Assembly (NCBI GenBank): GCA_964653365.1
Contig: CAZZER010000004.1
Coordinates: 8,429-72,428 of the forward strand
Length of the DNA: 64,000 nt
DNA from: an uncultured Candidatus Thioglobus sp.
GTDB taxonomy: Bacteria > Pseudomonadota > Gammaproteobacteria > PS1 > Pseudothioglobaceae
Direction: 5' to 3'
The translations under genes and the position numbers were made by a program. Each line of letters begins with the position of its first letter. The first letter of the stretch is position 1. Under the pieces are notes generated by a model, which saw only the letters and a program-made list of their open reading frames with translations, ran no database searches and was not told the DNA's origin. Positions 11,680-28,963 of the stretch are shown here, piece by piece.

Positions 11680-11703
11680 TTTTGATATTCAAGGGGGATT
11701 ATC

Positions 11704-12819: not shown

Positions 12820-14620
12820 CTAATTTATAACAGGAGAATCAAAAATGACAAGAATGACCTCAAGTGAGGCCTTTGTAGAAACAATGGTTGCCAATGGTGT
12901 TAAAGACATCTTTGGTATTATGGGCTCTGCCTTTATGGATGCTATGGACATCTTTGAACCGGCAGGCATTCGCCTTATCCCAGTGGTACACGAGCAGGGT
13001 GCTGGTCACATGGCAGACGGCTATGCTCGCGTTAGTGGCAAGCACGGTGTTGTGATTGGCCAAAATGGCCCGGGTATCTCTAATTGTGTAACTGCCATTG
13101 CAGCTGCTTATTGGGCACACTCTCCAGTGGTTATCATTACCCCTGAGGCTGGCACTATGGGCATGGGTCTTGGTGGCTTCCAAGAAGCTAACCAGCTACC
13201 AATGTTCCAAGAGTTTACTAAGTACCAAGGGCACGTTTGTAACCCAATGCGTATGGCTGAGTTTACTGGTCGTTGCTTTGACCGTGCCATGAGTGAAATG
13301 GCGCCAACACAGCTTAACATTCCAAGAGACTACTTCTACGCCGATGGTGAGTTCACTATCCCACAACCAAGAAGAATCGACCGTGGTACTGGTGGTGAAG
13401 AATCTCTTAACGATGCCGTTAACCTCATTGCGCAAGCGCAGTTCCCAGTAATTGTCTCTGGTGGTGGTGTAGTCATGGCCGATGGTGTTGACGAGTGTAA
13501 GGCACTTGCTGAGCGCTTAGGTGCGCCAGTAGTTAACTCTTATCTACATAATGACTCCTTCCCAGCTAGCCATGAACTATGGTGTGGTCCACTCGGTTAC
13601 CAAGGCTCTAAGGCTGGTATGAAGCTAATTGCTCAAGCCGATGTTGTAATCGCCTTAGGTACGCGTTTAGGACCTTTTGGCACATTGCCTCAACATGGTA
13701 TGGATTACTGGCCAAAAGACGCCAAAATCGTACAAATTGACGCCGACCATAAGATGCTTGGTTTGGTTAAATCAATTACTGTTGGTATTTGTGGTGATGC
13801 TAAAGCGGTTGCTGAAGCACTCACTGCCAAACTGGCAACAGCAGATCTTGCTTGTGATGCCAGCAAAGCTGAAAGAGCGGAAAAAATCGCTCAAGAGAAA
13901 GCCGACTGGGAAAAAGAATTGGATGAATGGATCCATGAAACTGACCCATACAGCCTAGACATGATTGAAGACCTTGAAGAGGGTTGGTTACACCCAAGAC
14001 AAGTTTTGCGTGAGCTTGAGAAGGCAATGCCTGAAGATGTGATGGTATCAACTGATATTGGCAACATCAACTCGGTGGCTAACAGCTACTTACGTTTTGA
14101 GAAGCCAAGAAGCTTCTTCGCACCAATGAGCTTTGGTAACTGTGGTTATGCGCTACCAACCATTATCGGTGCTAAAGCAGCAGCCCCTCACCGTCCAGCT
14201 GTCTCATACGCAGGTGATGGCGCTTGGGCCATGAGCATGGTAGAAACCATGACTTGTGTACGTCACGACATTCCTGTTACAGCTGTGGTCTTCCACAACT
14301 GCCATTGGGGTGCTGAGAAGAAGAACCAAGTAGACTTCTACGACAGACGCTTTGTTGCCGCTGAACTAACAGATCAACACTTTGTCAACATTGCTGAATC
14401 AATGGGTGCCGAAGGCATCCGTGTGGACAAACTTGAAGAGGTTGGTCCAGCGCTTAAAAAAGCCATTGACATGCAAATGAACGAAGGCAAAACAACCATC
14501 ATTGAAATCATGTGTACGCGTGAATTGGGTGACCCGTTCCGTAAAGATGCATTGAGCAAACCGGTGCGTTACTTGCCGAAGTACAAAGACTATGGTGTGA
14601 ATCAGCAGCATAGGTAGAAA
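12818..14620 (+). repeat. Copy 1 of a 1803-bp perfect direct repeat (27 nt of 5' leader with RBS, plus xsc, plus 3 nt)
   Basis: Every line I compared is identical to 32918-34720 at a constant offset of 20100. All six-frame ORFs in the two copies have identical translations. The first mismatches are t12817/a32917 and g14621/a34721. Confidence 0.9.
12845..14617 (+). CDS. xsc: Sulfoacetaldehyde acetyltransferase (ThDP-dependent), copy 1
   Basis: 590 aa. ThDP-enzyme layout (acetolactate-synthase-like) with the ThDP motif GDGAWAMSMVETMT...N. Located downstream of tpa-ald. Confidence 0.8.
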   Translation: MTRMTSSEAFVETMVANGVKDIFGIMGSAFMDAMDIFEPAGIRLIPVVHEQGAGHMADGYARVSGKHGVVIGQNGPGISNCVTAIAAAYWAHSPVVIITPEAGTMGMGLGGFQEANQLPMFQEFTKYQGHVCNPMRMAEFTGRCFDRAMSEMAPTQLNIPRDYFYADGEFTIPQPRRIDRGTGGEESLNDAVNLIAQAQFPVIVSGGGVVMADGVDECKALAERLGAPVVNSYLHNDSFPASHELWCGPLGYQGSKAGMKLIAQADVVIALGTRLGPFGTLPQHGMDYWPKDAKIVQIDADHKMLGLVKSITVGICGDAKAVAEALTAKLATADLACDASKAERAEKIAQEKADWEKELDEWIHETDPYSLDMIEDLEEGWLHPRQVLRELEKAMPEDVMVSTDIGNINSVANSYLRFEKPRSFFAPMSFGNCGYALPTIIGAKAAAPHRPAVSYAGDGAWAMSMVETMTCVRHDIPVTAVVFHNCHWGAEKKNQVDFYDRRFVAAELTDQHFVNIAESMGAEGIRVDKLEEVGPALKKAIDMQMNEGKTTIIEIMCTRELGDPFRKDALSKPVRYLPKYKDYGVNQQHR

Positions 14621-14726: not shown

Positions 14727-14779
14727 TTGACACACTAATGGGAAACATGATAAGATGCTCGAAACTCATATATATGAGT
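14727..14779 (+). promoter_or_regulatory. P(sat-apr): TTGACA(14727-14732)-18 nt-TAAGAT(14751-14756), followed 7 nt later by the 16-bp palindromic operator ACTCATATATATGAGT (14764-14779)
   Basis: Read directly. The architecture is nearly identical to 26877-26927 and, on the minus strand, to 25952-25894. Confidence 0.65.
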
Positions 14780-15006: not shown

Positions 15007-16215
15007 ATGTCTAATTTAGTGCCTGCGCATGGCGGCCTTGGTTTAAAGCCTTTAGGTCTTAATGATTATGAATTAACATCAGAGTTATCTAGAGCACAAG
15101 ACTTGCCATCTATTCCTTGCTCATCAAGAGAATTTGGCGATATTATTATGATGGGTATTGGTGGTTTTACTCCCCTTGATGGCTTTATGAATGAAGCAGA
15201 CTGGAAAAATGTCTGCTCTAATATGACAATGTCTGACGGCCTCTTTTGGCCAATCCCTATAACCTTGTCAACGAACGACGAAAGTATTCAAGAGGGTGAT
15301 GACATTGCCTTAACATTTGGCGACAGTGGAGATGTAATCGCTACGATGACAGTCACTCAGAAATACTGTATTGATAAAGATTTTGAGTGTCAATCAGTCT
15401 ACAAAACTACCGACCAAGAGCACCCTGGCGTGTCTATGGTGATGGCTCAAGGTAAATACAATCTTGCAGGCTCTATTAAAGTTTTGTCAGACGGGCATTT
15501 TCCCCAGACTTACGGTAGGCTTTATATGACCCCCAGTGAGACACGAACCTATTTTGAAGAAAAAGGTTGGTCAAGTGTTGCTGCCTTCCAAACGCGAAAC
15601 CCTATGCATCGTTCGCACGAATATCTGGCAAAAATTGCGATAGAAATCTGTGATGGAGTGATGATACATTCAACTTTAGGTGAGCTTAAGCCTGGGGACA
15701 TCCCAGCAGAAGTTCGCTCAAACGCGATAAGTGCTCTTATTGAGAATTACTTTACCGACAATAGTGTGTTGCAATCTGGCTATCCACTAGACATGCGATA
15801 TGCAGGGCCACGAGAGGCACTCTTGCATGCTCTTTTCCGCCAAAATTATGGCTGCTCACATTTGATTGTTGGGCGTGACCATGCTGGCGTTGGTGACTAC
15901 TACGGACCTTTTGATGCTCACAATATTTTTGATGAAATTCCAAAAGATGCATTAATTACTCAACCCCTTAAGATTGATTGGACATTCTGGTGTAATAAGT
16001 GCGCAAGTATGGCCAGTATGAAGACTTGCCCACATAGTTCTGATGATAGGTTGTTATTATCAGGTACTAAACTAAGACATATGCTAAGCGAGAATCTTGA
16101 TGTTCCTGAGAATTTTTCTAGAGCAGAGGTCTTAACCATATTGCGCGACTATTATGCGAAGCTAAAAGACGATGAAAAAGTCAAGGTGGAGTTAAAAGGC
16201 CACTCGGCGCAATAA
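15007..16215 (+). CDS. sat: Sulfate adenylyltransferase (ATP sulfurylase, Sat type)
   Basis: Motifs [13 protein letters not shown] and [12 protein letters not shown]. The track starts at TTG 15001; ATG 15007 ([10 protein letters not shown]) is more likely. Confidence 0.9.
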
Positions 16216-16273
16216 AAATGTAATAGCGATTTTTTAACGAAATTTATTATTTATTTAAGGAGAGATAAAAGAG

Positions 16274-17098
16274 ATGATTTCAACCAACCGAATTGCTGAA
16301 TTGTCGGCAGAGATACCTTACGAAGTGATGCAATACTATGTTGCAATCATGATTGCGCTTGTTGTTATCGCAACAATTGTTGATGTTACTCATAAAAAAA
16401 GCGCTAAATATTTCTTTGAGAACGCTAAAAAGGCTCAAAAAAATGCAACAAGAAAGGTTCCCAGTGGAGAGAAGGCAAGCATTGCAATAAAAACCGCCAT
16501 AGAGGATGTTGCTCTTTCAGGTGAATTTTGCAATACTAGGCGTAGAATAGCCCATTTGCTTACTATGTATGGTTTTATTCTCTTTGTGCTTTCAACGGCT
16601 ATCATGGTCTTTTGTGCAGAATCCGGTGAATCCTATACTATCCTCCCACAGTTGTGGCATTTAGGTGCTGGCATGCTGGCATTAGGTAGTTGGTGGTTTT
16701 GGTTATTTATTCGAGTCGACGTTGCTGCTGAGGGTAACAAGTGGTACAACATTGAACCGATGGATTTATTTAGCCTGTCATTAATGGCTACATCGGCATT
16801 TGCCCTAATTTGGTCCCTTAGCGGTGGTGGCGTTGGCCTCTTGTTTGTTTTGTTTGTGGCTGCCAGCACTATTCTATTTGGTGGTGTTCTATGGTCAAAG
16901 TTTGCACATATGTTTTTCAAACCTGCAGCAGCGTTTAACAAACGCATGATGAAGGCTGATGGTTCTATGGAAAATCTACCAGAACCAGCTGACAGATCAA
17001 ACCCTGAAACTCGTGATAGGCACTCAATGCTATTGCTTAAAGATGCGCCGATGGATATGGGCTTAGGTATTAAGCGTGAAGCGCCACGCCATTATTAA
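16274..17098 (+). CDS. aprM: Polytopic membrane protein, AprM-like putative membrane anchor and electron-transfer partner of APS reductase
   Basis: 274 aa with several long hydrophobic segments. It lies immediately upstream of aprBA, as aprM does in sulfur-oxidiser-type apr loci. I could not verify any diagnostic motif by eye. Confidence 0.5.
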   Translation: MISTNRIAELSAEIPYEVMQYYVAIMIALVVIATIVDVTHKKSAKYFFENAKKAQKNATRKVPSGEKASIAIKTAIEDVALSGEFCNTRRRIAHLLTMYGFILFVLSTAIMVFCAESGESYTILPQLWHLGAGMLALGSWWFWLFIRVDVAAEGNKWYNIEPMDLFSLSLMATSAFALIWSLSGGGVGLLFVLFVAASTILFGGVLWSKFAHMFFKPAAAFNKRMMKADGSMENLPEPADRSNPETRDRHSMLLLKDAPMDMGLGIKREAPRHY

Positions 17099-17118
17099 TT
17101 AGATTAAGGAGAAAGATT

Positions 17119-17589
17119 ATGCCAACTTTTGTATATATGACTCGTTGTGATGGCTGTGGACATTGTGTTGATATTTGTCCTTCGGATATTATGCACATTG
17201 ATAAGAAGTACCGTCGTGCAGTAAACATAGAACCCAATATGTGTTGGGAGTGTTATTCTTGTGTCAAAGCTTGCCCACAAAATGCAATTGATGTGCGCGG
17301 TTATGCCGATTTTGCACCGCTAGGACACAGTGTTAGGGTGTTAAGAGAAGAGGAAAAAGGCACCATTTCATGGAAGATTAAATTCCGTGACGGACGTGAA
17401 AAGAACTTTGTTTCCCCAATAACAACCAAACCTTGGGGCGAAAATATTCCAAAACTTAGTGAGTTGCCAATGCCCACTGAAGACGAATTTAAGAACCAAT
17501 TACTTTGTTATGAGCCTGATGCGCTAAACCTCGAAGAGGGTCTTCATACAATGAAAAATCTAACACTCAAAGAGGGAGTTTATTACTAA
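17119..17589 (+). CDS. aprB: Adenylylsulfate (APS) reductase beta subunit
   Basis: Two ferredoxin-type clusters, CDGCGHCVDICP and CWECYSCVKACP, plus a long C-terminal tail. Translationally coupled to aprA (TAATG). Confidence 0.85.
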   Translation: MPTFVYMTRCDGCGHCVDICPSDIMHIDKKYRRAVNIEPNMCWECYSCVKACPQNAIDVRGYADFAPLGHSVRVLREEEKGTISWKIKFRDGREKNFVSPITTKPWGENIPKLSELPMPTEDEFKNQLLCYEPDALNLEEGLHTMKNLTLKEGVYY

Positions 17590-19442
17590 TGGCAAAAGTT
17601 AAAACAATCTACGAAAATTGCGATGTGCTGGTTGTCGGTGGTGGCATGGGCGGCACGGGCGCGGCTTATGAGGCAAGATATTGGGGACGGGACATGAAAA
17701 TTGTTGTTGCCGAAAAGGCTAACATCGACCGCTCTGGTGCTGTTGCACAAGGCTTATATGCAATTAACTGCTACATGGGAACCCAGTGGCAAGAAAACAA
17801 TCCAGAGGATCATGTTCGCTATGCGAGAAATGATCTAATGGGCATGGTTCGAGAAGATCTCGCTTATGATATGGCTCGCCATGTTGATTCAGCTGTGCAT
17901 AAATTTGAAGAGTGGGGCTTACCATTGATGCGCAACGAAGAAACTGGTCGTTATCAAAGAGAGGGTAAGTGGCAAATTATGATCCATGGTGAGAGTTACA
18001 AGCCAATTGTAGCGGAGGCGGCGAAAAAATCTGCTGACAAAGTCTACAACCGCATAATGGTCACTCATTTGTTAATGGATGAAAATCAAGAAAATCGTGT
18101 TGCTGGCGCAGTTGGCTTTAATTGTCGCACGGGCAATTATCACGTTTTTAGAGCAAAAGCGGTAGTAGTTTCTGCCGGTGGTGCGTCTCACATTTTCAAA
18201 CCTCGTTCCGTAGGTGAAGGCATGGGTCGAACTTGGTATGCACCGTGGAGCAGTGGCTCAGCGTATGCGTTATCGATTGAGGCTGGCGCAAAAATGACAC
18301 AAATGGAAAACCGTATTGTATTGGCCAGATTCAAAGACGGTTATGGGCCAGTTGGTGCCTACTTTCTACACCTTAAAACATATACTCAAAACGGTTATGG
18401 TGAAGAATACGAGTCCAAATGGTACGAACACACAAAGGAAATTGTTGGCGAATATATAGATCACACACCAACGCCAACTTGTTTGCGTAATCATGCTTTT
18501 ATTGAGGAAGTAAAAGCGGGTCGTGGCCCTATTCACATGGTCACTATGGAAGCTTTCCAAGACCCTCATCTTGAAGAAGTGGGATGGGAAAACTTTCTTG
18601 GTATGACTGTTGGTCAAGCGGTAGTTTGGGCTTCGCAAAATATCGATCCTAAATACATCAATCCTGAATTAACAACCTCCGAACCTTATGTGATGGGTTC
18701 ACATGCAACTTGTTCTGGCGCTTGGTGTTCCGGACCAGAGGATCTCTCTCCGCCAGAATATTTCTGGGGCTACAACCGAATGATGACGGTGGATGGTTTG
18801 TTCGGCGCTGGAGACGCTATTGGTGGTACAGCGCATGCGTTTTCATCGGGTTCTTTTACTGAGGGTCGTTTGGCTGCAAAAGCTGCAGTTAATTACATTC
18901 TCGATGGTAAGGGTGAGGATATTGATGTATCAAAGAAAAAAATTGCTGAACTAAAAGAGGCGATATATAAACCTCTCGAAAATTACACAGTTGGACGCAA
19001 TGAAATTGTCGGTGGTACGGTTTCCCCAAGCTATCTTTTGCCAATCCAAGGGCTTCAACGCCTTGAAAAAATTATGGATGAATACTGTGGTGGCATTGGC
19101 GTTAATTATATGACCAATGATAAACTGCTTAACATGGGCTTAGAAAAACTAGCGGTCCTTGAAGAAGATTTAGACCACATCGGTGCTGAGGATACTCACC
19201 AATTGATGAGAGCGTGGGAATTGAAGCATCGTCACCGCACATCTGAATGTGTCATGCAACATACCTTATTCCGCAAAGAGACGCGCTGGCCAGGGTATTA
19301 CTATCGTGGGGACGCACTCAAACTGGATGACGAGAATTGGCATGTACTAACTGTTTCAAGACGTAACCCTGAGACAGGGGAGTACACGATGGAGAAAGCA
19401 CCGGTGTATCACTTGGTTGATGATGAACAGGGGGCTGGCTAA
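17589..19442 (+). CDS. aprA: Adenylylsulfate (APS) reductase alpha subunit (flavoprotein)
   Basis: 617 aa. FAD fold DVLVVGGGMGGTGAAYEA. Fumarate-reductase-like flavoprotein layout, paired with aprB and sat. Confidence 0.85.
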   Translation: MAKVKTIYENCDVLVVGGGMGGTGAAYEARYWGRDMKIVVAEKANIDRSGAVAQGLYAINCYMGTQWQENNPEDHVRYARNDLMGMVREDLAYDMARHVDSAVHKFEEWGLPLMRNEETGRYQREGKWQIMIHGESYKPIVAEAAKKSADKVYNRIMVTHLLMDENQENRVAGAVGFNCRTGNYHVFRAKAVVVSAGGASHIFKPRSVGEGMGRTWYAPWSSGSAYALSIEAGAKMTQMENRIVLARFKDGYGPVGAYFLHLKTYTQNGYGEEYESKWYEHTKEIVGEYIDHTPTPTCLRNHAFIEEVKAGRGPIHMVTMEAFQDPHLEEVGWENFLGMTVGQAVVWASQNIDPKYINPELTTSEPYVMGSHATCSGAWCSGPEDLSPPEYFWGYNRMMTVDGLFGAGDAIGGTAHAFSSGSFTEGRLAAKAAVNYILDGKGEDIDVSKKKIAELKEAIYKPLENYTVGRNEIVGGTVSPSYLLPIQGLQRLEKIMDEYCGGIGVNYMTNDKLLNMGLEKLAVLEEDLDHIGAEDTHQLMRAWELKHRHRTSECVMQHTLFRKETRWPGYYYRGDALKLDDENWHVLTVSRRNPETGEYTMEKAPVYHLVDDEQGAG

Positions 19443-19482
19443 CAAGCCCGCTGAAAAGCAAAACGTCAAATTTAATCAAAAG

Positions 19483-19512
19483 ACCGTTATACTTATTGTG
19501 TAGCGGTTTTTT
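19483..19512 (+). terminator. Rho-independent terminator after aprA
   Basis: accgttatac-ttatt-gtgtagcggt forms a 10-bp stem with two G-U pairs, followed by ttttt. Confidence 0.6.
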
Positions 19513-19524
19513 AATGTATAGAAA

Positions 19525-19875
19525 ATGAACTTATTAAATAAAACAGACGATGAGATTCTTGAGATTGCTAACCCAATGTGGCGCAATCTTATTAAGAATT
19601 CGAATAATCAAAACTACATCGGTTTCACCAAGAATTTTTCCAAAGAAATGTTGCGGGGAGCCAACGAAATCGAAGTTGGAAAACAATGGGCGAGAAACGA
19701 GTTAACCAAGAACTTATCCAAAGACATGGAATTACTTGGCATTCTTAGGCGAGGCGATCATGTCAGTATTTTATACAAGCAAACAAATAAGAAAATCCCT
19801 GGGGAATACTTGGGTCGTCTTGTGCTAGGTGTGGAGGATGGTATGGTTAGAATTTTTGGTGCAACGATATTTTAG
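19525..19875 (+). CDS. Hypothetical protein (116 aa)
   Basis: Clean ORF with an ATG start after the aprA terminator. No motif recognised. Confidence 0.45.
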   Translation: MNLLNKTDDEILEIANPMWRNLIKNSNNQNYIGFTKNFSKEMLRGANEIEVGKQWARNELTKNLSKDMELLGILRRGDHVSILYKQTNKKIPGEYLGRLVLGVEDGMVRIFGATIF

Positions 19876-19882
19876 CCATGTT

Positions 19883-20377
19883 ATGAAAGAAATTATTCAA
19901 GACGATAAATTTGTCGAATTAAACTACAAAATTACAGATCAAAAAACGGGTGAAATAATTGCTCAAGTGAATGTACCTTTGGGTTATGTTCAAGGCGATA
20001 AATCGCCATTATTGCCTCAAGTCATCCAGGCGCTTGAAGGAAAGTCGGTCGGTGATAAAATAGATGTGCCAATAGATTGCACTGAAATATTTGGCCCATG
20101 GGATAAGGATTTAACCTTTACAGACGACCTTGAAAACGTGCCAGAGGAGTATCGCTCGATTGGTACTAAAATCACGATGGAAAATAACGAGGGTGAGCCT
20201 AAAGATTTTTTTGTAACCAAGATTGAAAATAACAAGCTTACAGTAGATGGCAACAATCCTTTGTGCGGTAGGGAAGTGATTTTTTCCTTAAAGATTATTT
20301 CAATTCGCGATGCAACCGAAGCAGAGATTGAATCTGGTTGTGCCGTAGAGGTTGATCCAAACGAAACACGACATTAA
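19883..20377 (+). CDS. FKBP-type peptidyl-prolyl cis-trans isomerase, SlyD/SlpA-like
   Basis: From the internal ATG at 19883: MKEIIQDDKFVELNYKITD...; IF-domain-like insert; LTVDGNNPLCGREVIFSLKIISIRDATEAEIE matches the SlyD-family C-terminal motif (hPLAGk.L.F.v.v..vR.At.eE). No His-rich tail. Confidence 0.7.
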   Translation: MKEIIQDDKFVELNYKITDQKTGEIIAQVNVPLGYVQGDKSPLLPQVIQALEGKSVGDKIDVPIDCTEIFGPWDKDLTFTDDLENVPEEYRSIGTKITMENNEGEPKDFFVTKIENNKLTVDGNNPLCGREVIFSLKIISIRDATEAEIESGCAVEVDPNETRH

Positions 20378-20396
20378 TATCATTAATGCAATTATT

Positions 20397-20744
20397 ATGC
20401 CAATAGACTTCTCCCTTTTAGAAATAAACCTAGCAAAGAACCTTGTTAATGATCGATGGCGTGACGTAAAAATTGAGCTCGCTGATGTTGAAGTCTCAAG
20501 ATCATCGAAAAGCGAATCTTTGCCTTATCCAGCCCTTGTATGGGAGGCCTCAAAGTGCACGTTCGTTGTTATCAAGGTCGACGAATCCGCCTATAAGTGT
20601 ATTTTTTATTATTTAGGTACACAACGTTTTGATACTGGGGTCAATGAGTATGAAGATTTACACGATTGTGTTCTTTCGATCATGAAGCTTCAAGCCAACT
20701 TTTTGTTGACAAAAAACAACGATATCAGCGTTTCAAACACTTAA
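20397..20744 (+). CDS. Hypothetical protein (115 aa from ATG 20397)
   Basis: ORF only; no motif recognised. The track start at 20352 overlaps the upstream gene. Confidence 0.4.
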   Translation: MPIDFSLLEINLAKNLVNDRWRDVKIELADVEVSRSSKSESLPYPALVWEASKCTFVVIKVDESAYKCIFYYLGTQRFDTGVNEYEDLHDCVLSIMKLQANFLLTKNNDISVSNT

Positions 20745-20753
20745 AGAAATAAG

Positions 20754-21242
20754 CTAAGCAGAAAGGTCGTTAAAGACATGCGACTCAAACATCCAATTTT
20801 CTTTGTTGTCGATTGTTAGCGTTAAACATCTGGGCCCACCCTGGTTGCGAACACCACCTGAAGCTCCAGGGTTGATTATCCAAGGTTTGGTGTCATCGTC
20901 TATTGTTTGCACATGAGTGTGCCCATATACAACAGCCTTTGCGTCTGGATAAGTTCTTCTTAGTGAGTCATGGCACGGTTGGTAATGACCATGCTTATGC
21001 CCGTGCTCTATTACCAGGGTGCCACCAGGTAAATCAAGGCTCTCAACTTCTTTAAGGAAGAGCATGTGTGGATCATTGTTTCCTTGAACTGCAATAAGCT
21101 TTTGTCTTGGTGTAAGGTATTGCAGGATGGATTCATCAATAATATCTCCAGCATGAACAGCAAAATCACAGTTGTTAATCAACTCGACTATTTGCGGGTG
21201 GATTTCACCATGTGAGTCTGAAAGAATTGCAATAGTTACCAT
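20754..21242 (-). CDS. YfcE/MJ0936-family metallophosphoesterase
   Basis: Motifs DSHG, HAGD, GNND, EHGH and GHTH occur in canonical order. Lies 22 nt downstream of the soeC-like gene on the same strand. Confidence 0.8.
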   Translation of the reverse strand: MVTIAILSDSHGEIHPQIVELINNCDFAVHAGDIIDESILQYLTPRQKLIAVQGNNDPHMLFLKEVESLDLPGGTLVIEHGHKHGHYQPCHDSLRRTYPDAKAVVYGHTHVQTIDDDTKPWIINPGASGGVRNQGGPRCLTLTIDNKENWMFESHVFNDLSA

Positions 21243-21263
21243 ACAAAAAACCTTTATAAATTA

Positions 21264-22190
21264 TTATGCTTCTCTGCCATAGTATAAATTGACAACGTGT
21301 TTGGCTTCAGCAAAAAATAGCCATCTTTCCAACAGGGCGCCAAGGAAGCAAGTACATGTCGCACTAACTAATGTAACAAAATCAAAACCCTGTAACAAGC
21401 TGAATACTGGAAAAACTACCATCAAAATGAGAGAAGCATAACGAAGTACCTGCACTTTTTTTGCAGATACCTCAAAACCAAATTCACGCATTGAGAAGTT
21501 TTTGGCACTTTCACCCGTATGCAATAAGCGCACGGTTCTTGCAGAGAGACCTGTTGCTGTTTTGATACTTAGACCAGAGGGTTTGCCTATAAAGTAATAG
21601 TAAATGATTTTAGTAATAAGAACCAATGTGGGTAAAACAAGCAATATTTCAACGGGCATATTAGGCCCTTGATCAAAGAATTTGAAGATTGATAGGCATG
21701 CTAGGGAGCCAGAAAGTAGCCCAATTAATATGTAATTGCATGGTACTAGGGGTGAATTCCAGGCGCGAATAGTCTTAAGGCACGCATAAATCATTCCCGT
21801 TGAATAAATCGTGATTAATGAAATAGCCATGAGAGTAATTGCAATAGAACTAAACAACGTTTCGCTTGCTTCGAACAGATAGAATGAAGCGATAAAAATC
21901 AACGCGATAGGAAAACTTAACACCGCAAATACACCTTCTCTTGAAAGCCAAGATGAACGAAAACGCAAAAATGCTCGCCAAGCATTCTTTGGATTTGCCA
22001 AATGAAATGTTGATGAAATTAACCCCAGCACAACACAAAGTAAACCAAAGGACGTACTTGTGAATAGCGCATCAGAAAAGTGATTTACAGACTCTTTACT
22101 GAGCAGTGCAATTAACGCGGAGAAAACCAAAACGCCATATCCCATTCCTGAGGAGACCGTAAATAAGATAACTGAAAAAGCTGGATGCAT
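21264..22190 (-). CDS. soeC: DmsC/NrfD-like polytopic membrane anchor subunit, SoeC-like
   Basis: 308 aa, about 8 hydrophobic helices. Third gene of the molybdoenzyme operon. Confidence 0.6.
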   Translation of the reverse strand: MHPAFSVILFTVSSGMGYGVLVFSALIALLSKESVNHFSDALFTSTSFGLLCVVLGLISSTFHLANPKNAWRAFLRFRSSWLSREGVFAVLSFPIALIFIASFYLFEASETLFSSIAITLMAISLITIYSTGMIYACLKTIRAWNSPLVPCNYILIGLLSGSLACLSIFKFFDQGPNMPVEILLVLPTLVLITKIIYYYFIGKPSGLSIKTATGLSARTVRLLHTGESAKNFSMREFGFEVSAKKVQVLRYASLILMVVFPVFSLLQGFDFVTLVSATCTCFLGALLERWLFFAEAKHVVNLYYGREA

Positions 22191-22205
22191 AATTACTCCA
22201 ATTAG

Positions 22206-22898
22206 TTAGCGACTAATTAACTCATTCGCCCAGTTTTTAACTTGGCTAATGAGTGTTTTTGGTTTTTTGTCAATCTTGATATTGTTGGCAAGTCTTGGCG
22301 GTAAATATTGGTTTGTTGGGTTGTATCCAAGTTCACTCATTAAACCATCGCCATTTCTCTCACGAGTTAGCTTGCTAACATTCGAGTTAGGGTCATCGAA
22401 GTCGCCAAAATGGCGTGCACTGGTTGGGCAGGTCATAACACATGAGGGTTGGCGCTCAGCCTCTGGCAGTGATTCATCATAAATTCGATCAACACATAGG
22501 GTGCACTTTTTCATCGTGCCAGATTCTCTGTCTAGTTCTCTAGAGCCATAAGGGCAGGCCCATGCGCAATAATTGCAACCCATGCATTTGTCTTGGTCAA
22601 TTAAAACAATGCCATCGCTTTTGCGTTTGTAAGATGCACCTGTTGGACAAACAGTAACACAGGCGGCCTCTTCACATTGCATACAAGACATAGGGAAATT
22701 AACCGTTTTATCATGAGGGTAGTCGCCTTCTTCGTAAACACGAACACGGTTAAAAAAAACGCCCGAAGGATCTTTGTCATAAGGTTTATGATCGCTAAGT
22801 GAGCCTGTTGTTCCAGATGTGTTCCATTCTTTACAGGAAATGGCGCAAGCATGACAACCAACACAGGTGTCTAAATCAATAACTAATCCTAATCTCAT
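22206..22898 (-). CDS. soeB: 4Fe-4S ferredoxin-type electron-transfer subunit (DmsB-like), SoeB-like
   Basis: Cys clusters CVGCHACAISC, CMQCEEAACVTVCP, CMGCNYCAWACP and CTLC...C. Confidence 0.7.
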   Translation of the reverse strand: MRLGLVIDLDTCVGCHACAISCKEWNTSGTTGSLSDHKPYDKDPSGVFFNRVRVYEEGDYPHDKTVNFPMSCMQCEEAACVTVCPTGASYKRKSDGIVLIDQDKCMGCNYCAWACPYGSRELDRESGTMKKCTLCVDRIYDESLPEAERQPSCVMTCPTSARHFGDFDDPNSNVSKLTRERNGDGLMSELGYNPTNQYLPPRLANNIKIDKKPKTLISQVKNWANELISR

Positions 22899-22907
22899 AA
22901 TATCTCC

Positions 22908-25841
22908 TTAACGCGCTTTTTTGCCACGGGTTAATACGTCTTTTGTTGGGCGCACAATATTGACAGGGTCGTGAGTTTTGTATCTAAGAATGTCGGGTTG
23001 TAATGGTGCGTTAGGTATAGGCTTAATAGTGTCAAACTGCGGGAATGAAACCGGCGTTTGATCTTCAGCTCTTCGCACTTTGACTCGGGCGTCGTACCAA
23101 GCAGCTTGGCCAGTAATTGGGTCAGAATTTGTCAATTCTTTTCTGGAAGGTGAATTGGGTAACAATTCTGAAATTAAATGGTTAAGCAAAAAGCCTTTTT
23201 CCGATTCGTTAGAACCCGCTTTTAAGCCCCATGCGCCAGATTGCTTGCCAATAGCGTTCCAAGTCCAAACAGTGTGCTTTTCACAACCTTCCATCAACTT
23301 AGCTTGAACTTTAATTGCGCCACTTCTAGATTCGACCCATACCCAATCGTGCTCAGCAATACCCATCGATTCAGCGATTGTTCGATTAATATAAAGCCTA
23401 TTTTGAGCCATAATTTGACGCAACCAAGCGTTTTGTGAATCCCATGAGTGGTACATAAACATTGGTCTTTGAGTGGTGGTTGAGAAAGGATATTCATTTT
23501 CATCAATCATTTCCACCTCAAGAGGTTTGTAGTAACTTGGGCAGGGTGTAAAGTATTTGCTTAAACGTTCTTTATCAGTTTCGTTTGTGGGGCAAGGTCC
23601 GTCGTAAAGGCCCTTTCCAGCTAAGCGGAACTTTTGCAAGGTCTCTGAGTACAACTCCATGACAATGGGTTTGTCATTAAAATTTAAATGAGTCTCGGCT
23701 GCAAACTCAAGATACTCTTTATTAGCAAAACGATAGTACTTTTGTGAGTCCGGAATTTTGGTCTCGAAAAAACTTTCGTTTTCAATATATTTTTCCCACT
23801 GATCCGGGTTTGGCTCTCCAACAATACTTTTTTCACCGTTTTTACCTCTCCAGCCAGCTAAAAAACCTATTCCGGGGTGCTTTTCCCAATTGGTGATAAA
23901 TTCTTTGTAACCTGAGTATTTAGCGCTGCCATCCGCATTCGTGAATACGGGAAATTTTAACCTAGTGCCCAAGTCAACCATGACTTCTTGCCATGGCCTG
24001 ACATCGCGATCTAGTTCAACAATTGGGTGTCTGATTGAGTCAGCAATAACATGCGGCTCGGAAATAGGGCGGTCAAGGATAGAGATTGTGTCGAAGCGCT
24101 CTAGGTAGGTAGTGTCAGGCAGAATAAGGTCGCCAAAATTAACTGTTTCTGAGTGAAAAGTGTCCACAACCACCAAGTACGGAATTTTATATTCACCGTT
24201 TTCGTCTTTTTCTCGTAAAAGTTTTTGGGTGTCTCCGGGATTCATGCTTGAATTCCATGCCATATTCGCCATAAAGAAAATAAGCGTATCAATTGAGTAT
24301 GGATCTCCCTTTACTGCGTTGTTGACCACCATATGCATAAGGCCGTGGTTTGCAATGGGCGCTTCCCATGAATAGGCTTTATCAATTCTAAGTGGTTTTC
24401 CGCTCTTGTCGATACACAGATCTTCTGGACATGTAGGAAAGCCTAAAGGTGGTGTTTTTAAAGGCGTATTAGGCGACATCTCTTTTGCCGGTTTAATTGG
24501 CGGCGGTATCATTCTTGGGAAGGGAGGCTTTGCCAAGTGTGACCCCGGGCAATCAATGGCTCCTAACAGCACTTGCAAGATATGAATGGCGCGACAAGTT
24601 TGAAAGCCGTTCGAGTGTGCAGCGATACCACGCATCGCATGCATTGACACTGGTCTGCCAATAAATTTATCGTGTTTTCTGCCAGTCCAATCTGTCCATT
24701 CCGTTTCAATTTCTATGGTTTCTTGAAAAGCTACATGTGACATTTCTAAAGCATGTCTTTCGATATCTTCAACAGAGATACCAGTTTCTTTCTCAATCTT
24801 TTCTAAGCTGTATTCATCATCAAGGTAAGTTTCAACCAAAATAGTAAAAGAGGTTTTAACCATAAAACCTTCATCAGTTTGCCACTCACCAAATAAAGCA
24901 GGCTTTATATCTGCTTGACTCGCATCCACAAAGCTGTTTTCTTCAAGCTCCCAAGCCAGAGGCTTGCCTTCACTGTTTCGCCAAATAAGGCCGTCATTGC
25001 TTTGGCCTGGATTTTGAATAACCAAATGAGGCGCATTGGTGTAACGCACCAAAAATTCTTTGTCAAATTGATCGTTTTCAAGCAATACACGAGACATTCC
25101 TATTGCAAACAAGCCATCGGTTCCTGGTCGGATAGGAATCCACTCATCAGCAATAGCTTGGTAGCCAGTACGCACTGGGTTTACGGTGGCAAATTTAGCA
25201 CCATTTTTTTTCAGTTTTGAAAGACCGATTTTAATTGGATTTGACGAATGGTCTTCGGCTACACCCCAAAGCATAAAGTACTTGGTATTATCCCAATCAG
25301 GATCGCCAAACTCCCAAAATGACTGCCCTAATGTATAGAGACCCGCCGCCGCCATATTGACAGAGCAAAAGCCGCCGTGTGCAGACCAATTAAGCGTTCC
25401 AAATTGTTGTGCCCAAAGCCCCGTAAGCGCCTGCATTTGATCTCTGCCGGTAAAAAAAGCCAATTTTTTTGGGTCAGTATCACGGATTTTTTGTAAACGC
25501 TCTGTGAGTTCGTTCAGGGCTTCATCCCAGGATATAATCTCGAACTCCCCTGCACCTCTTTCTGTACCAGGCTTTCTGCGCATGGGAGAGTGGAGTTTAG
25601 CCATAGATTCATGCTTCATAATGCCAGCATTGCCTTTGGCACAAAGCACACCTTTGTTTATTGGGTGGTTGCGATTACCTTGTATGTAGCGAACTTTTTT
25701 CCCTTCAAGCGTCACTTTGATGCCACAACGGCAAGCACACATATAGCAAGTGGTTGTTTTTACTTCTTGATTTGATCTGTCTTCAAAAATCGGTAAAGGG
25801 TCTTCAAGATCAATATTTTGCGGGCATGTTTGTGTGCTCAT
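22908..25841 (-). CDS. soeA: Bis-MGD molybdopterin oxidoreductase catalytic subunit without a Tat signal, SoeA-like (cytoplasm-facing sulfite:quinone dehydrogenase)
   Basis: 977 aa. N-terminal FeS motif CYMCACRCG...C. There is no RRxF(L/K) motif in MSTQTCPQNIDLEDPLPIFEDRSNQEVKTTT. The three-gene A-B-C layout and sulfonate context fit SoeABC. Confidence 0.65.
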   Translation of the reverse strand: MSTQTCPQNIDLEDPLPIFEDRSNQEVKTTTCYMCACRCGIKVTLEGKKVRYIQGNRNHPINKGVLCAKGNAGIMKHESMAKLHSPMRRKPGTERGAGEFEIISWDEALNELTERLQKIRDTDPKKLAFFTGRDQMQALTGLWAQQFGTLNWSAHGGFCSVNMAAAGLYTLGQSFWEFGDPDWDNTKYFMLWGVAEDHSSNPIKIGLSKLKKNGAKFATVNPVRTGYQAIADEWIPIRPGTDGLFAIGMSRVLLENDQFDKEFLVRYTNAPHLVIQNPGQSNDGLIWRNSEGKPLAWELEENSFVDASQADIKPALFGEWQTDEGFMVKTSFTILVETYLDDEYSLEKIEKETGISVEDIERHALEMSHVAFQETIEIETEWTDWTGRKHDKFIGRPVSMHAMRGIAAHSNGFQTCRAIHILQVLLGAIDCPGSHLAKPPFPRMIPPPIKPAKEMSPNTPLKTPPLGFPTCPEDLCIDKSGKPLRIDKAYSWEAPIANHGLMHMVVNNAVKGDPYSIDTLIFFMANMAWNSSMNPGDTQKLLREKDENGEYKIPYLVVVDTFHSETVNFGDLILPDTTYLERFDTISILDRPISEPHVIADSIRHPIVELDRDVRPWQEVMVDLGTRLKFPVFTNADGSAKYSGYKEFITNWEKHPGIGFLAGWRGKNGEKSIVGEPNPDQWEKYIENESFFETKIPDSQKYYRFANKEYLEFAAETHLNFNDKPIVMELYSETLQKFRLAGKGLYDGPCPTNETDKERLSKYFTPCPSYYKPLEVEMIDENEYPFSTTTQRPMFMYHSWDSQNAWLRQIMAQNRLYINRTIAESMGIAEHDWVWVESRSGAIKVQAKLMEGCEKHTVWTWNAIGKQSGAWGLKAGSNESEKGFLLNHLISELLPNSPSRKELTNSDPITGQAAWYDARVKVRRAEDQTPVSFPQFDTIKPIPNAPLQPDILRYKTHDPVNIVRPTKDVLTRGKKAR

Positions 25842-25893
25842 TCTCGATTTGGCAATGCTTATATTAATTAAAAGGAAGTTTGTGATTTGAGTA

Positions 25894-25952
25894 ACTCATA
25901 TATATGAGTACATTCGGTGTTAATTTTACTTGGTTGTAAGTCTGCTTGGCAA
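25894..25952 (-). promoter_or_regulatory. P(soe): reading the minus strand, TTGCCA(25952-25947)-18 nt-TAAAAT(25928-25923), followed 13 nt later by ACTCATATATATGAGT (25909-25894)
   Basis: Read directly. Same palindrome and same 18-nt spacer as the other two promoters. Confidence 0.6.
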
Positions 25953-25989
25953 TAAATATAAGAGGTCTGATAATTTGCTGGGCAATAAA

Positions 25990-26709
25990 TTATTCTGGCA
26001 CACCAATAGTGGTTGTGTAACTGAACATATCAGCACGACCAGTTGTTATACGATATTCAACCAACCCTTTGCCTTTTGCATAAGAATGACGGTTTAGGAT
26101 AACAACAGGGTCTCCCTCATTAATATCAAGAATAGTAGCAGTTTTATTATCAGCAATGCTTGCAGTTAGTATTTCTTTAGATGAGGTAACATGGGTTCCA
26201 AATTGTTTGGATACCAATGCATATAACAAGTCTGGGATATGAACGCTAGATTTCTGCAAACCCTCAACTGTCTCAGCGATCCACCAAGATTTTTCAATTA
26301 TGATCGGGTGCTTTTTATCGATATATCCCATTCTTTCTAGGTAAATCACTTCGTCACCATGCTCAATTTCAAGTTGATGGCTGATTTCAGCGGTAGCAGA
26401 AATCTTTTTTCTAACCGGAGTTGTTTTATAGATGCGGATTGACGAGCCAGTGCTACTACCATAACTGAAAAAGTTAAACATACTATTGTCAAAGCCATAA
26501 TCCGAAACATAGGTGCCTTTACCATGATGGCGATAGAGTAATTTGTCTTGCTCAAGAATATCAATGGCCTTTCTGACTGTCCCAACACTGACGCCGAGTA
26601 ATTTTGACAGCTGTGATTCAGAGGGCACAAGGTCACCAACCATTAATTCACCACTAGTAATTCTATCCTTAATATGGTCAACTACAGTTTCGTAAAGTTT
26701 CTTTTTCAA
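25990..26709 (-). CDS. GntR-family transcriptional regulator, HutC subfamily (wHTH plus UTRA effector domain)
   Basis: 239 aa. N-terminal HTH ESQLSKLLGVSVGTVRKAIDILEQDKLLYRHHGKGTYV. The C-terminal ~160 aa have UTRA-like length and pattern. Confidence 0.8.
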   Translation of the reverse strand: MKKKLYETVVDHIKDRITSGELMVGDLVPSESQLSKLLGVSVGTVRKAIDILEQDKLLYRHHGKGTYVSDYGFDNSMFNFFSYGSSTGSSIRIYKTTPVRKKISATAEISHQLEIEHGDEVIYLERMGYIDKKHPIIIEKSWWIAETVEGLQKSSVHIPDLLYALVSKQFGTHVTSSKEILTASIADNKTATILDINEGDPVVILNRHSYAKGKGLVEYRITTGRADMFSYTTTIGVPE

Positions 26710-26876
26710 AGCAAGGCATATAATTGAATTTTGATATATGATAACACACTGATCATATCCACGAAGACTCGTATTGGTCCATTTAATTATAGTATGTCAA
26801 TTAAGGTGCAGTTATAACTAATTGTTTTTTATTGAAAAATATAATTTTTTGCTTTATATCAATATAAAAAATATAA

Positions 26877-26927
26877 TTGACAACCTGTAAGTTGCCATGG
26901 TAAGATGCATCACTCATATATATGAGT
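26877..26927 (+). promoter_or_regulatory. P(tct): TTGACA(26877-26882)-18 nt-TAAGAT(26901-26906), followed 5 nt later by ACTCATATATATGAGT (26912-26927)
   Basis: Read directly. It lies in the divergent region between the GntR gene and tctA. Confidence 0.65.
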
Positions 26928-26974
26928 ACTGGCGAATCATAAATATAATTAATTAATTTATTGAGTGCAATAGA

Positions 26975-28486
26975 ATGGAATATTTCGTATTTTTAGACTA
27001 CTTTGATAACGTTTTTACTTGGTATCACTTAGCACTACTTATTGGCGGTACATTTGCTGGAATTGTTTTGGGAGCATTGCCTGGCCTTAGCCCAACTATG
27101 TCTGTTGCTCTTCTTATTCCATTTACTTTCCATATGGAGCCAGCTAGTGGCCTAATTTTGTTAGGTGCTATGTACACAGCCACTGTAGCTGGTGGCGCGA
27201 TTAGTGCTATCTTGGTGAATGTGCCTGGCGCACCGGCTAATATTGCTACGGCTATGGATGGTCATAAACTAGCAAAGCAAGGCAAGGCAAAAGAAGCTCT
27301 TCACTATTGCTTTATGTCGTCATTTGTTGGCGGTATATTTGGTGTTATTATTCTAATTTTCTTTACCCCACCTTTGGCTGAATGGTCGCTAAAATTTGGC
27401 ACGACAGAGCTTTTTTGGGTTGCGATTTTAGGTATTACCATCATTGCAACAATTGACTCGAATTCTGTTGTCAAAGGCCTTTTATCAGGCCTTTTTGGTT
27501 TGATATTGGCGACAGTGGGTGACAATCCGGTTCTTGGCGTTGAAAGATTTGTGGTCTCAGATCACCTTACCGGCGGTGTTAATATTGTTGTTGGTTTGAT
27601 TGGTTTGTTCGCAATGCCACAAGTCCTAAGCCTGATGGAGGGTTATTATAAAGACAAACACGATGTATTAGAAGCCACAGGTTCTTCCACTTTGCTTCAA
27701 TCATTTAGGTATGTACTTAGCCGTATTAAAGCGTTGTCAATTGGATCTGTCGTTGGCTCTTTGATTGGCATCATCCCAGGTGCTGGCGGACAAATAGCGG
27801 GCCTAGTTTCCTACGATCAGACAAAAAAAGTAAGTAAAGTCCAGGACAATTACGGCAAGGGTGAGCCAGAAGGTGTTGTCGCAGCTGAAAGCGCAAACAA
27901 TTCGATGGTTGGGCCTTCTTTAATTCCGTTATTAACTTTGAGTATTCCAGGCAGCCCTACAGCAGCGGTTTTGTTGGGTGGTCTTCTTATTCATGGTATT
28001 TTTCCTGGCCACGAAATTTTTGTGTCAGAAAATACTAAAGAAGTGGTTTGGACATTTATTGATTCTTTAATTCTTGCGCAAGTGTTCATGCTTATTATTG
28101 GTCTTTTCCTAAGCAGACATAGTGGCTGGATTATGAAAGTACCTGACAACTATATGGCTGTCGGTATTTTTGTTTTGGCAGTTTTTGGTACTTATAGTAT
28201 CGGTAACTCGTATTCAGATGTGTTGATCATGGTTACTTTGGGCACTGTAATGTTTTTTGCCAGTAAGGCAGGTTTTAGCGCTGTACCTGTTGTGTTGGGT
28301 ATTATTTTGGGTCCAATTGCTGAGAATAACTTTTTATTGGGTAAATTAATTGGCGGTGCAAAATATCAAGGTGATTGGTGGCTGTACTTTGTTCGCGATT
28401 CTCTCAATATAACTTTGATTGCAATCTGTTTACTTTCAATCGCATGGGGTGTTTACTCCACAACAAAATCTAAGAATAAATCTTAA
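26975..28486 (+). CDS. tctA: Tripartite tricarboxylate transporter (TTT) large permease, TctA family
   Basis: 503 aa, highly hydrophobic. TctA-like pattern GALPGLSPTMSVALLIPFTF..., ...IIPGAGGQIAGLVSYDQ..., ...LSIPGSPTAAVLLGGL. Confidence 0.8.
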   Translation: MEYFVFLDYFDNVFTWYHLALLIGGTFAGIVLGALPGLSPTMSVALLIPFTFHMEPASGLILLGAMYTATVAGGAISAILVNVPGAPANIATAMDGHKLAKQGKAKEALHYCFMSSFVGGIFGVIILIFFTPPLAEWSLKFGTTELFWVAILGITIIATIDSNSVVKGLLSGLFGLILATVGDNPVLGVERFVVSDHLTGGVNIVVGLIGLFAMPQVLSLMEGYYKDKHDVLEATGSSTLLQSFRYVLSRIKALSIGSVVGSLIGIIPGAGGQIAGLVSYDQTKKVSKVQDNYGKGEPEGVVAAESANNSMVGPSLIPLLTLSIPGSPTAAVLLGGLLIHGIFPGHEIFVSENTKEVVWTFIDSLILAQVFMLIIGLFLSRHSGWIMKVPDNYMAVGIFVLAVFGTYSIGNSYSDVLIMVTLGTVMFFASKAGFSAVPVVLGIILGPIAENNFLLGKLIGGAKYQGDWWLYFVRDSLNITLIAICLLSIAWGVYSTTKSKNKS

Positions 28487-28487
28487 T

Positions 28488-28940
28488 ATGAAGCCCCAAA
28501 TCAAACTTTCCACTATTGTTGTCACATTACTTACCATTGGTTTACTGATAATCTCCTTTGACGAGGTTCTCAACCCGAACAAATGGACTGAAAACGAAGA
28601 CTACCTATTCCCACGATTTGTAGCTTGTGGAATCGCATTTTTGACTCTACTCTTATTTTTTGATCAAACAAAAAATAAAAAAACCCTATTAAAAGACTTA
28701 TTGCCAGGCCTGGGCTTAATAATTGTCTACCTTGTCGTCATGAAAACCATTGGTTTTTATGTGACCTCCCTAATTATGTTCTTCGCAGTTGTGATGATTT
28801 ATCAAAAGCGTGAAGAATCTACTGACTTTTGGCGTGCGAGCATTTATAAACTCGCAATATCAATAGTTTTTACAGTTGTACTGTACTTGCTATTTACTGT
28901 GTTATTGAATGTTTACCCGCCAAAGGGGTTGTTTTTATAA
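28488..28940 (+). CDS. tctB: TTT small membrane subunit, TctB family
   Basis: 150 aa from ATG 28488, one nt after the tctA stop. Four hydrophobic helices. Located between tctA and tctC. Confidence 0.65.
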   Translation: MKPQIKLSTIVVTLLTIGLLIISFDEVLNPNKWTENEDYLFPRFVACGIAFLTLLLFFDQTKNKKTLLKDLLPGLGLIIVYLVVMKTIGFYVTSLIMFFAVVMIYQKREESTDFWRASIYKLAISIVFTVVLYLLFTVLLNVYPPKGLFL

Positions 28941-28963
28941 CTAACTCATATAAGGAGAGAAAA

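Follow-up and report, generated by a model that had tools for sequence, protein, structure and literature searches.

Two predicted cytoplasm-facing routes of sulfite oxidation in an organosulfonate degradation island of Candidatus Thioglobus

The stretch of DNA analysed here, which we call the window, comprises 64,000 nucleotides of contig CAZZER010000004.1 (C4) from an uncultured Candidatus Thioglobus species (assembly GCA_964653365.1, genome label G000; "the host" in the following). Between positions 15007 and 25841 it carries a sat-aprMBA operon and, on the opposite strand, a soeABC operon, both embedded in an island of genes for the degradation of taurine and sulfoacetate. We propose, with a probability of about 0.75, that this region encodes two cytoplasm-facing routes, each of which would turn the sulfite released by sulfoacetaldehyde acetyltransferase (Xsc) into sulfate with conservation of energy. 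In the indirect route, AprBA would join sulfite and AMP to adenosine 5'-phosphosulfate (APS), two electrons would reach the quinone pool by way of AprM, the membrane anchor, and Sat would convert APS and pyrophosphate to sulfate and ATP. In the direct route, SoeA would oxidise sulfite with water and deliver the electrons via SoeB and SoeC to the quinone pool. Taurine (tpa-ald-xsc1) and sulfoacetate (tctABC-sauST-xsc2) would furnish the sulfite that serves as substrate, and a HutC-type GntR regulator would repress the sat-apr, soeABC and sulfoacetate operons until released by a metabolite of the sulfonate pathway. We infer the oxidative direction, the quinone as acceptor, the pairing of regulator and operator, and the ligand from sequence data.

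Both enzyme systems are established, as are their coexistence in Allochromatium vinosum, the oxidation of sulfite from sulfonates by either Apr/Sat or Soe, and the combination of apr/sat with taurine genes in this clade. New are the co-location of both routes with a sulfoacetate operon behind one operator, the either/or distribution of Apr and Soe in the genus, where the host is the sole holder of both among 43 species genomes, an explanation for the yfcE gene next to soeC, and an exact duplication of xsc which brackets the module. The host genome is a draft of 1.46 Mb in 65 contigs with a completeness of 93.6%; its nearest named relatives are Candidatus Thioglobus metagenome-assembled genomes (MAGs), which places it in the Arctic96BD-19/T. 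singularis genus. For the comparison within this genus, 43 species genomes were used, five of which are closed. Proteins were identified by searches with Pfam and NCBIfam profiles, whose scores (in bits) were compared with the curated cut-offs; matches to PDB entries were considered in addition.

The Sat-AprMBA and SoeABC modules

The first module lies on the plus strand and starts with sat (15007-16215), whose product is an ATP sulfurylase of the dissimilatory type: it scored 516.7 bits with NF003166 (cut-off 387) and 383.8 bits with TIGR00339 (cut-off 322.95), contains the Pfam domains ATP-sulfurylase and PUA_2, and shows the motifs already quoted in a preliminary description of the window, QTRNP... 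at residue 195 and GRDHAG... at residue 289. The genes aprB (17119-17589) and aprA (17589-19442) encode the iron-sulfur (FeS) and the FAD subunit of APS reductase. Both identities had been proposed before and lie far above the equivalog cut-offs, with 195.8 bits for AprB (TIGR02060, cut-off 135.65) and 1015.4 bits for AprA (TIGR02061, cut-off 641.75). AprA, which is encoded by a single-copy gene in the host genome, also matches the structures of the enzymes from A. fulgidus (651 bits) and D. gigas (570 bits). The two cysteine clusters of AprB announced in the preliminary description were found as the groups 10/13/16/20 and 42/45/48/52, which correspond to lineage-I numbering, and the KGxD/EK/R loop is missing.

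Between sat and aprB, where a polytopic membrane gene had been noticed, an open reading frame for 274 residues (16274-17098) ends 20 nt upstream of aprB. Its product contains five hydrophobic segments by inspection and four according to a crude threshold. A Pfam search assigned it to no family, and its only matches, which concern the membrane portions of QmoC and TcuB, are weak; it is named AprM-like for its hydrophobic segments and its position before aprBA, and it is kept across the genus with 58-60% identity. No qmo genes occur within the apr locus. Members of the oxidative Apr lineage I, which is found in sulfur oxidisers and in SAR11, have aprM in front of aprBA, lack qmo genes, and possess an AprB without the charged loop and with cluster-I cysteines at positions 20/42/45/48 (Meyer and Kuever, PMC2211403). 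On the basis of the cysteine spacing in AprB and the location of aprM before aprBA, we classify the module as a predicted sat-aprMBA operon of the oxidative lineage-I type.

The best described system of comparison is sat-aprMBA of A. vinosum (Alvin_1118-1121; PMC3779200), where the genes have the same order and are co-transcribed, and where AprM is likewise described as a protein with five helices and no recognised domain. The AprB cysteine spacing (20/42/45/48) is shared, and in both organisms a cysDN-type assimilatory pathway is kept separately beside sat. In contrast to A. vinosum and lineage I, however, the host has no reverse dissimilatory sulfite reductase (rDsr) or Sox system feeding Apr, its operon stands behind a palindromic operator in common with the sulfoacetate operon, and two small conserved genes follow aprA.

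APS reductase and ATP sulfurylase are reversible in principle (PMC2211403), and Sat and AprMBA might instead activate and reduce sulfate for biosynthesis. We regard this as highly improbable, given that assimilation is served by a separate set of genes on contig C17, which encodes CysD, a CysN-CysH fusion and a sulfite reductase of the NirA/Sir type. The fusion is a single open reading frame of 651 residues (L145 82-2037), in which CysN is joined to a CysH-type reductase domain for APS or 3'-phosphoadenosine 5'-phosphosulfate. Moreover, the lineage-I type of AprB is known from sulfur oxidisers and SAR11, and the operator is common to sulfite-producing genes.

The second module lies on the minus strand and consists of three adjacent genes separated by gaps of 9 and 15 nt: soeA (22908-25841) for a catalytic subunit with molybdenum-bis(pyranopterin guanine dinucleotide), soeB (22206-22898) for a four-cluster FeS subunit (Pfam Fer4_11), and soeC (21264-22190) for a membrane anchor of the DmsC/NrfD type (Pfam DmsC, E = 4.9e-21) with eight crude transmembrane segments by hydropathy. 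SoeA comprises 977 residues, contains the Pfam domains Molybdop_Fe4S4, Molybdopterin and Molydop_binding, and has the N-terminal cluster motif CX2CX3CX27C from residue 32 onwards. The preliminary description had reported these three subunits on the opposite strand and the lack of a twin-arginine (Tat) signal in the largest one, and it was correct on all counts. By inspection, the first 45 residues of SoeA contain neither an RR pair nor a hydrophobic N-region, and in SoeB the first cysteine motif begins at residue 12, with no signal peptide in front of it. Likewise, an RR pair was found in the first 45 residues of 0 of 119 SoeA homologues of at least 900 residues. A cryptic Tat signal in SoeA, which had been considered earlier, did not turn up. 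As SoeA has no Tat signal, SoeABC is predicted to face the cytoplasm. (A terminator-like hairpin at 21442-21474 was disregarded, as it is located inside the coding sequence of soeC.)

The earlier concern that SoeA might belong with PsrA, PhsA or TtrA was not borne out. The scores with the curated models were far below the cut-offs in the case of PhsA (186.2 versus 694 bits) and TtrA (97.2 versus 1750 bits), and those for DmsA/YnfE (119.9 versus 777.7 bits) and ArrA (82.2 versus 1600 bits) also stayed below. The closest solved structure is PsrA of T. thermophilus (PDB 2VPW), with a partial match of 132 bits restricted to residues 25-268. The PsrABC/PhsABC enzymes share the three-subunit plan and provide the closest structure as well as the closest curated model; SoeA of the host differs from them by about 200 additional residues, by the missing Tat signal and by its PhsA score.

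At the sequence level, SoeA shows full-length identities of 65-70% with proteins from Thioalkalivibrio, Ectothiorhodospira, Acidithiobacillus, Granulosicoccus, Arenicella, Amphritea and others. These form a tight, Tat-less clade from sulfur oxidisers and taurine-degrading marine Gammaproteobacteria. A scan of other genomes for SoeA homologues returned 80 loci, with Allochromatium not among them; in about 9 of these 80 loci from other Gammaproteobacteria, Arenicella included, soeABC is at most 10 kb away from xsc, tpa or tauR. This neighbourhood ties Soe to taurine independently of the host genome. SoeABC has been described in A. vinosum and Ruegeria pomeroyi, and homologues have been reported in Acidithiobacillus (PMC6335251). 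As far as the summary in that source goes (Dahl et al. 2013 and Lehmann et al. 2012, via PMC6335251), the studied enzymes agree with that of the host in the subunit order A-B-C, in the lack of a Tat signal, in the NrfD/DmsC-type anchor and in a tie to taurine catabolism, which was proposed for roseobacters; this likeness is one of description, not of alignment. The host case differs in that the genes occur in a Thioglobus with a streamlined, 1.46-Mb genome and in a genus where SoeA was found in 4 of 43 genomes, in that the soe promoter carries the operator of a HutC-type regulon, and in that yfcE follows 21 nt downstream.

The xsc repeat and the linkage of the modules

The preliminary description had placed both sulfite routes between two copies of xsc, and this arrangement was found. 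The first copy (xsc1; 12845-14617) is the last gene of the taurine branch tpa-ald-xsc1 (10318-14617), and the second one (xsc2; 32945-34717) ends the tctABC-sauST-xsc2 operon; all these genes are on the plus strand. With 1036.5 bits for TIGR03457 (cut-off 676.4), xsc1 was identified as encoding the sulfite-releasing sulfoacetaldehyde acetyltransferase. The two copies are 100% identical at the DNA level over approximately 1.8 kb; the identity sets in some 27 nt ahead of the ATG and ends shortly after the stop codon. They constitute direct repeats (12818-14620 and 32918-34720, including the ribosome-binding region), which bracket an 18.3-kb segment with the apr, soe, gntR, tct and sauST genes. 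By means of homologous recombination between the xsc copies, this module could be deleted, amplified or circularised.

An identical repeat of 1.8 kb can misjoin short-read assemblies, and the genome is a draft of 65 contigs; the contig might thus be a chimera joined across xsc, with apr and soe genes stemming from different genomes. Of all alternatives, we give this one the least credence, as it is hardly compatible with other read sets. Among the Logan contigs of run X1, which represent an independent assembly made with a different assembler and may derive from the source sample, a single repeat-free contig of 9.7 kb spans positions 18577-28279, i.e. it extends from aprA via the orfX genes, yfcE, soeCBA and gntR into tctA, with a uniform depth of 51. 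The xsc parts have a depth of 101-108 in X1, which is about twice that of the island, and both entries into xsc, from ald and from sauST, were seen. In run X3, which originates from another study, a contig (record 9) connects xsc with the sat leader and contains the operator. The matches in X3 and in run X4 are short pieces only, with 95-99% identity, and none of them bridges apr to soe; bins without cover in X3, X4 and the RNA library X9 are not interpretable. That apr and soe are linked on a single molecule is thus solid. Two real copies of xsc are the simplest reading of the doubled depth; a 20-kb circle in combination with a single chromosomal xsc fits the graph equally well and still leaves apr and soe on one molecule. 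Library X9, which belongs to the same study, yielded contigs at least 99% identical to xsc, aprB, aprA, soeA, tctC and sauST, which is only a hint at expression.

The common operator and the source of the sulfite

The 16-bp palindrome ACTCATATATATGAGT occurs in exact copies at positions 14764, 25894 and 26912 (0.2 matches are expected by chance). The region's three best promoter-like sites have one copy each, which follows the -10 box at a distance of a few bases downstream. In front of sat, the site TTGACA-18-TAAGAT (14727-14756, plus strand) is followed by the operator at 14764-14779; in front of soeA, the site TTGCCA-18-TAAAAT (25952-25923, minus strand) has the operator downstream at 25894-25909; and promoter and operator of the sulfoacetate operon are at 26877-26927 (plus strand). 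The latter operon comprises tctABC (26975-29923) for the uptake of sulfoacetate, a sauS-sauT fusion (30008-32914) of the desulfonation branch, and xsc2. The claim that both sulfite routes have a palindromic operator in common is thus confirmed and extends to tctABC-sauST-xsc2. The adjacent gene (25990-26709, minus strand) encodes a HutC-type GntR regulator with a GntR helix-turn-helix and a UTRA domain.

With at most one mismatch, the palindrome occurs in 34 of the 43 genus genomes. Genomes that contain apr genes have it about 2.8 kb upstream of aprA, i.e. before sat, and possess a second copy between gntR and tctABC-sauST-pta; gntR adjoins the operator in G007, G047 and G018. Both gntR and the palindrome are absent from G001, G055, G020 and G041. 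Because regulator and operator co-occur across the genus, we predict that they form a pair, and the HutC-type GntR is most likely the repressor of the sat-apr, soeABC and sulfoacetate operons acting via the palindrome. In G055, which has Soe only, a shortened palindrome (ACTCAT-G-ATGAGT; L136, ~13520-13600) stands before soeA and aligns with the host operator; this weak evidence may indicate a decayed former operator. SoeA loci from other taxa yielded no exact match to the palindrome.

Two further exact copies exist in the host genome. One (contig C39; L134 ~5428) precedes a CitE/malyl-CoA-lyase-like gene, which is followed by genes for the β and α subunits of malate-CoA ligase, a thioesterase and a lipid kinase; the second copy (contig C40; L135 ~1727) has a malic enzyme gene on one side and mdh on the other. 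The candidate regulon would hence join uptake and desulfonation of sulfoacetate, oxidation of sulfite, and the handling of C2/C4 carbon.

Three observations concern related genomes. In the closed genome G019 (L143, C1:890970-891176), the operator stands directly before pta, and tctABC-sauST is missing there. For the regulator, the match in this genome is limited to its first 69 residues (67% identity) and falls within an open frame of 319 residues, which may reflect a rearranged regulator or one of another architecture. In the apr-type genome G018 (L130 9976-16569), the gap between xsc and gntR is filled by genes of the glyoxylate shunt, namely for malate synthase G, RraA, AceK, isocitrate lyase and an IclR-type regulator.

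With respect to the origin of the sulfite, searches of the host genome detected none of DsrA, SoxB, SoxY and flavocytochrome c sulfide dehydrogenase (FCSD). None of the 43 genus genomes yielded DsrA, the positive control being its detection in 48 of 60 genomes from other genera of the family, and SoxB did not exceed the cut-off in any of the 43. These absences agree with Ansorge et al. (10.1101/2020.12.11.421487), who credit the Arctic96BD clade with aprAB and sat only, describe it as devoid of sox and dsr, and name it as the sole one to encode taurine use. As no DsrA, SoxB, SoxY or FCSD was found and assimilation is covered by its own Cys set, Xsc is, judged by gene content, the evident source of sulfite; with no Sox or rDsr system to make it from inorganic sulfur, the sulfonates would supply it. 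The missing Sox/rDsr genes, the separate Cys set and the operator in common with the sulfoacetate operon also support the original suggestion that sulfonate-derived sulfite is oxidised with conservation of energy, and that the two routes serve more than lithotrophy.

This is of relevance because the relatives of Arctic96BD-19 and Ca. Thioglobus singularis are abundant in the dark ocean and are usually counted as "sulfur oxidisers" by means of aprA and sat. Since Sox and rDsr were not found, since the operator is common with the sulfoacetate operon, and since soeABC is placed against xsc, these markers, and SoeABC where present, would by genomic logic belong to organosulfonate catabolism in this genus. 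Consequently, metagenomic counts of aprA and sat should not be taken as lithotrophy here. Taurine and sulfoacetate would be energy sources that could support the RuBisCO of these cells, whose large subunit is encoded in the host genome (contig C10, L003; 474-aa frame). Sulfonate-derived sulfite might serve as reductant and energy source for CO2 fixation.

Several points weigh against our interpretation. The palindrome does not fit the GT..AC core which is the textbook feature of HutC-type operators, and co-occurrence is all that the pairing with the regulator is based on. The operators at C2/C4 genes may mean that the signal is the carbon status or an intermediate, and not a sulfonate or sulfite. 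The RNA contigs may stem from contaminating DNA, and the completeness of 93.6% bears on the gene absences in the host. Finally, stimulation by thiosulfate has been reported for Ca. T. singularis, as quoted in 10.1101/2020.12.11.421487, which makes an inorganic route to sulfite possible.

The last point leads to an alternative, in which Apr/Sat and Soe would mainly oxidise sulfite that originates from thiosulfate, sulfide or stored sulfur via an unrecognised pathway, and would thus feed CO2 fixation by RuBisCO; the position of the genes in the sulfonate island would be incidental. Such a lithotrophic role would make sense of the RuBisCO gene, of the sulfur globules which the same quotation mentions for Ca. 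T. singularis besides the stimulation, of the cooperation of Apr/Sat with rDsr in the rest of the family, and of the central-carbon genes in the regulon. It is, however, difficult to reconcile with the lack of DsrA, SoxB, SoxY and FCSD in the host and of DsrA and SoxB in the genus, five closed genomes included, with the operator in common with the sulfoacetate operon, and with the location of soeABC directly against xsc in relatives that possess Soe only. We therefore consider it unlikely and prefer Xsc-released sulfite as the substrate of both routes.

Distribution in the genus and the origin of the arrangement

Among the 43 genus genomes, Apr/Sat and SoeABC were found together in the host alone; the others follow an either/or pattern. 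In apr-type genomes (e.g. the closed G007, G019 and G047), the genes are distributed among three loci. The first consists of operator-sat-aprMBA-orfX1-orfX2 and is convergent with yfcE; the second one is gntR-operator-tctABC-sauST-pta, convergent with etf genes (G007, G047); the third contains tauABC...tauR-tpa-ald-xsc. In soe-type genomes (G001, G055, G020), tpa-ald-xsc is convergent on soeCBA, pta is divergent from soeA, and the etf genes lie beyond; aprA/sat-apr, gntR, the operator and tctABC-sauST were not found in these three genomes, which have a single xsc.

The layout of the host corresponds to a soe-type backbone with two additional blocks. The apr block, from the operator to yfcE, is located between xsc and soeC, and the block from gntR to sauST, together with the second xsc, is located between soeA and pta. 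The backbone is closest to the soe-type species, with identities of 94-96% for xsc, 90-91% for ald, 86-88% for tpa and 87-88% for the electron transfer flavoprotein-ubiquinone oxidoreductase. The taurine islands of these soe-only sisters thus resemble that of the host in tauR, tpa-ald-xsc, soeCBA, pta and etf, with 86-96% identity in the backbone and 69-70% for pta, and differ from it by the absence of sat-apr, gntR, operator and tctABC-sauST and by having one xsc instead of two. Between AprA of the host and each apr-type AprA the identity is 85-87%, compared with 93-100% among the latter; similarly, its SoeA is 88-89% identical to the other three of the genus, which share 90-95% among themselves. 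Beyond this genus, one further genus of the family was found to have SoeA (78% identity). In addition, the closed genome of a third genus contains a SoeA-like remnant (G059:C1:643547-644887) with 45% identity and four in-frame stops, which suggests that SoeABC was once more widespread in the family.

From these data we infer that the ancestor of the genus had an operator-controlled sat-aprMBA operon and that one subclade probably gained SoeABC between xsc and pta. In the simplest history, the host lineage would branch off basally in the soe subclade and would have kept the ancestral apr operon with its regulon; Apr/Sat, the regulator and the sulfoacetate genes would later have disappeared from the sister species. 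A more far-reaching interpretation, which we offer tentatively and rate as somewhat short of an even chance, regards the host as a living intermediate in the replacement of Apr/Sat by SoeABC for sulfonate-derived sulfite. The incoming soeABC genes would have come under the control of a HutC-type repressor that was in place before and had linked the catabolism of sulfoacetate with the oxidation of sulfite and the assimilation of C2 compounds, and the 18-kb module between the identical xsc copies could be lost, amplified or transferred by recombination.

A related alternative is that only one route is in use and that the other one is newly redundant and heading for loss, as in the sister species. 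The mutual exclusion of the two systems across the genus, save for the host, and the sister species without apr, gntR and operator would be in line with such a transitional state. Still, all seven genes are intact and have good family scores, an exact operator is present at both promoters, and contigs of the RNA library match aprBA and soeA, which is weak evidence. Moreover, A. vinosum retains both systems in functional form (PMC3779200; Dahl et al. 2013, as reported in PMC6335251). We therefore think that redundancy is quite improbable. The either/or pattern with one double holder constitutes a natural system for studying why cells keep one or two sulfite routes.

All genes named in the preliminary description were found intact at the positions given there; its inventory was incomplete only with respect to three small open reading frames between aprA and yfcE (19525-20744), two of which are conserved partners of aprBA. 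These two are orfX1 (116 residues) and orfX2 (about 164 residues), at 19525-20377 on the plus strand. They always follow aprA in apr-type Thioglobus (L120, L123, L128, L133), are also found after aprA in a Pseudomonadota MAG (L013 2446-3294), and occur at the edge of a Thioalkalivibrio ALJ7 locus (L010 3-750). Atlas gave an NTF2/SnoaL-like lead for orfX1 and an FKBP-like lead for orfX2, both of which are feature-based leads only; Pfam searches with orfX1, orfX2 and orfX3 found nothing even at E = 1. The two genes may encode accessory or maturation factors of lineage-I APS reductase. The third frame, orfX3 (20397-20744, plus strand), is doubtful: it has no homologue in any fetched locus, and relatives have just ~20-50 nt between orfX2 and yfcE. 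The idea that orfX1-3 represent one frameshifted gene was discarded, as orfX1 and orfX2 are separate conserved reading frames in the relatives.

The gene yfcE (20754-21242, minus strand) encodes a phosphoesterase of the YfcE family (69.3 bits with TIGR00040, cut-off 56.25). It had been described as appended 22 nt after soeC and without obvious role; it does adjoin soeC, with a gap of 21 nt, and its placement can be explained by comparison with the relatives. In every apr-type genome examined (G007, G019, G021, G047), yfcE is convergent with orfX2. There it directly follows another co-directional gene, so that the upstream junction differs in the host. After soeC of the soe-only genomes G001, G055 and G020, yfcE is absent. 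Synteny with the apr locus in the relatives and this absence rule out an accessory gene of Soe. This comparison of gene order marks yfcE as a gene that ancestrally adjoined the apr locus and is a synteny relic; its place behind soeC is a by-product of block joining and does not speak for a role in sulfite oxidation, although the gene may now be transcribed by read-through.

Two genes complete the island at its ends. Upstream of tpa, tauR (8732-10204, minus strand) encodes a regulator of the MocR type, as identified by Pfam and NCBIfam. Downstream of xsc2, an open reading frame at 34848-35843 (plus strand) is read as pta (phosphate acetyltransferase), a name given from its position and the conserved etf synteny only; it is 58-70% identical to the reading frame at the same position in relatives.

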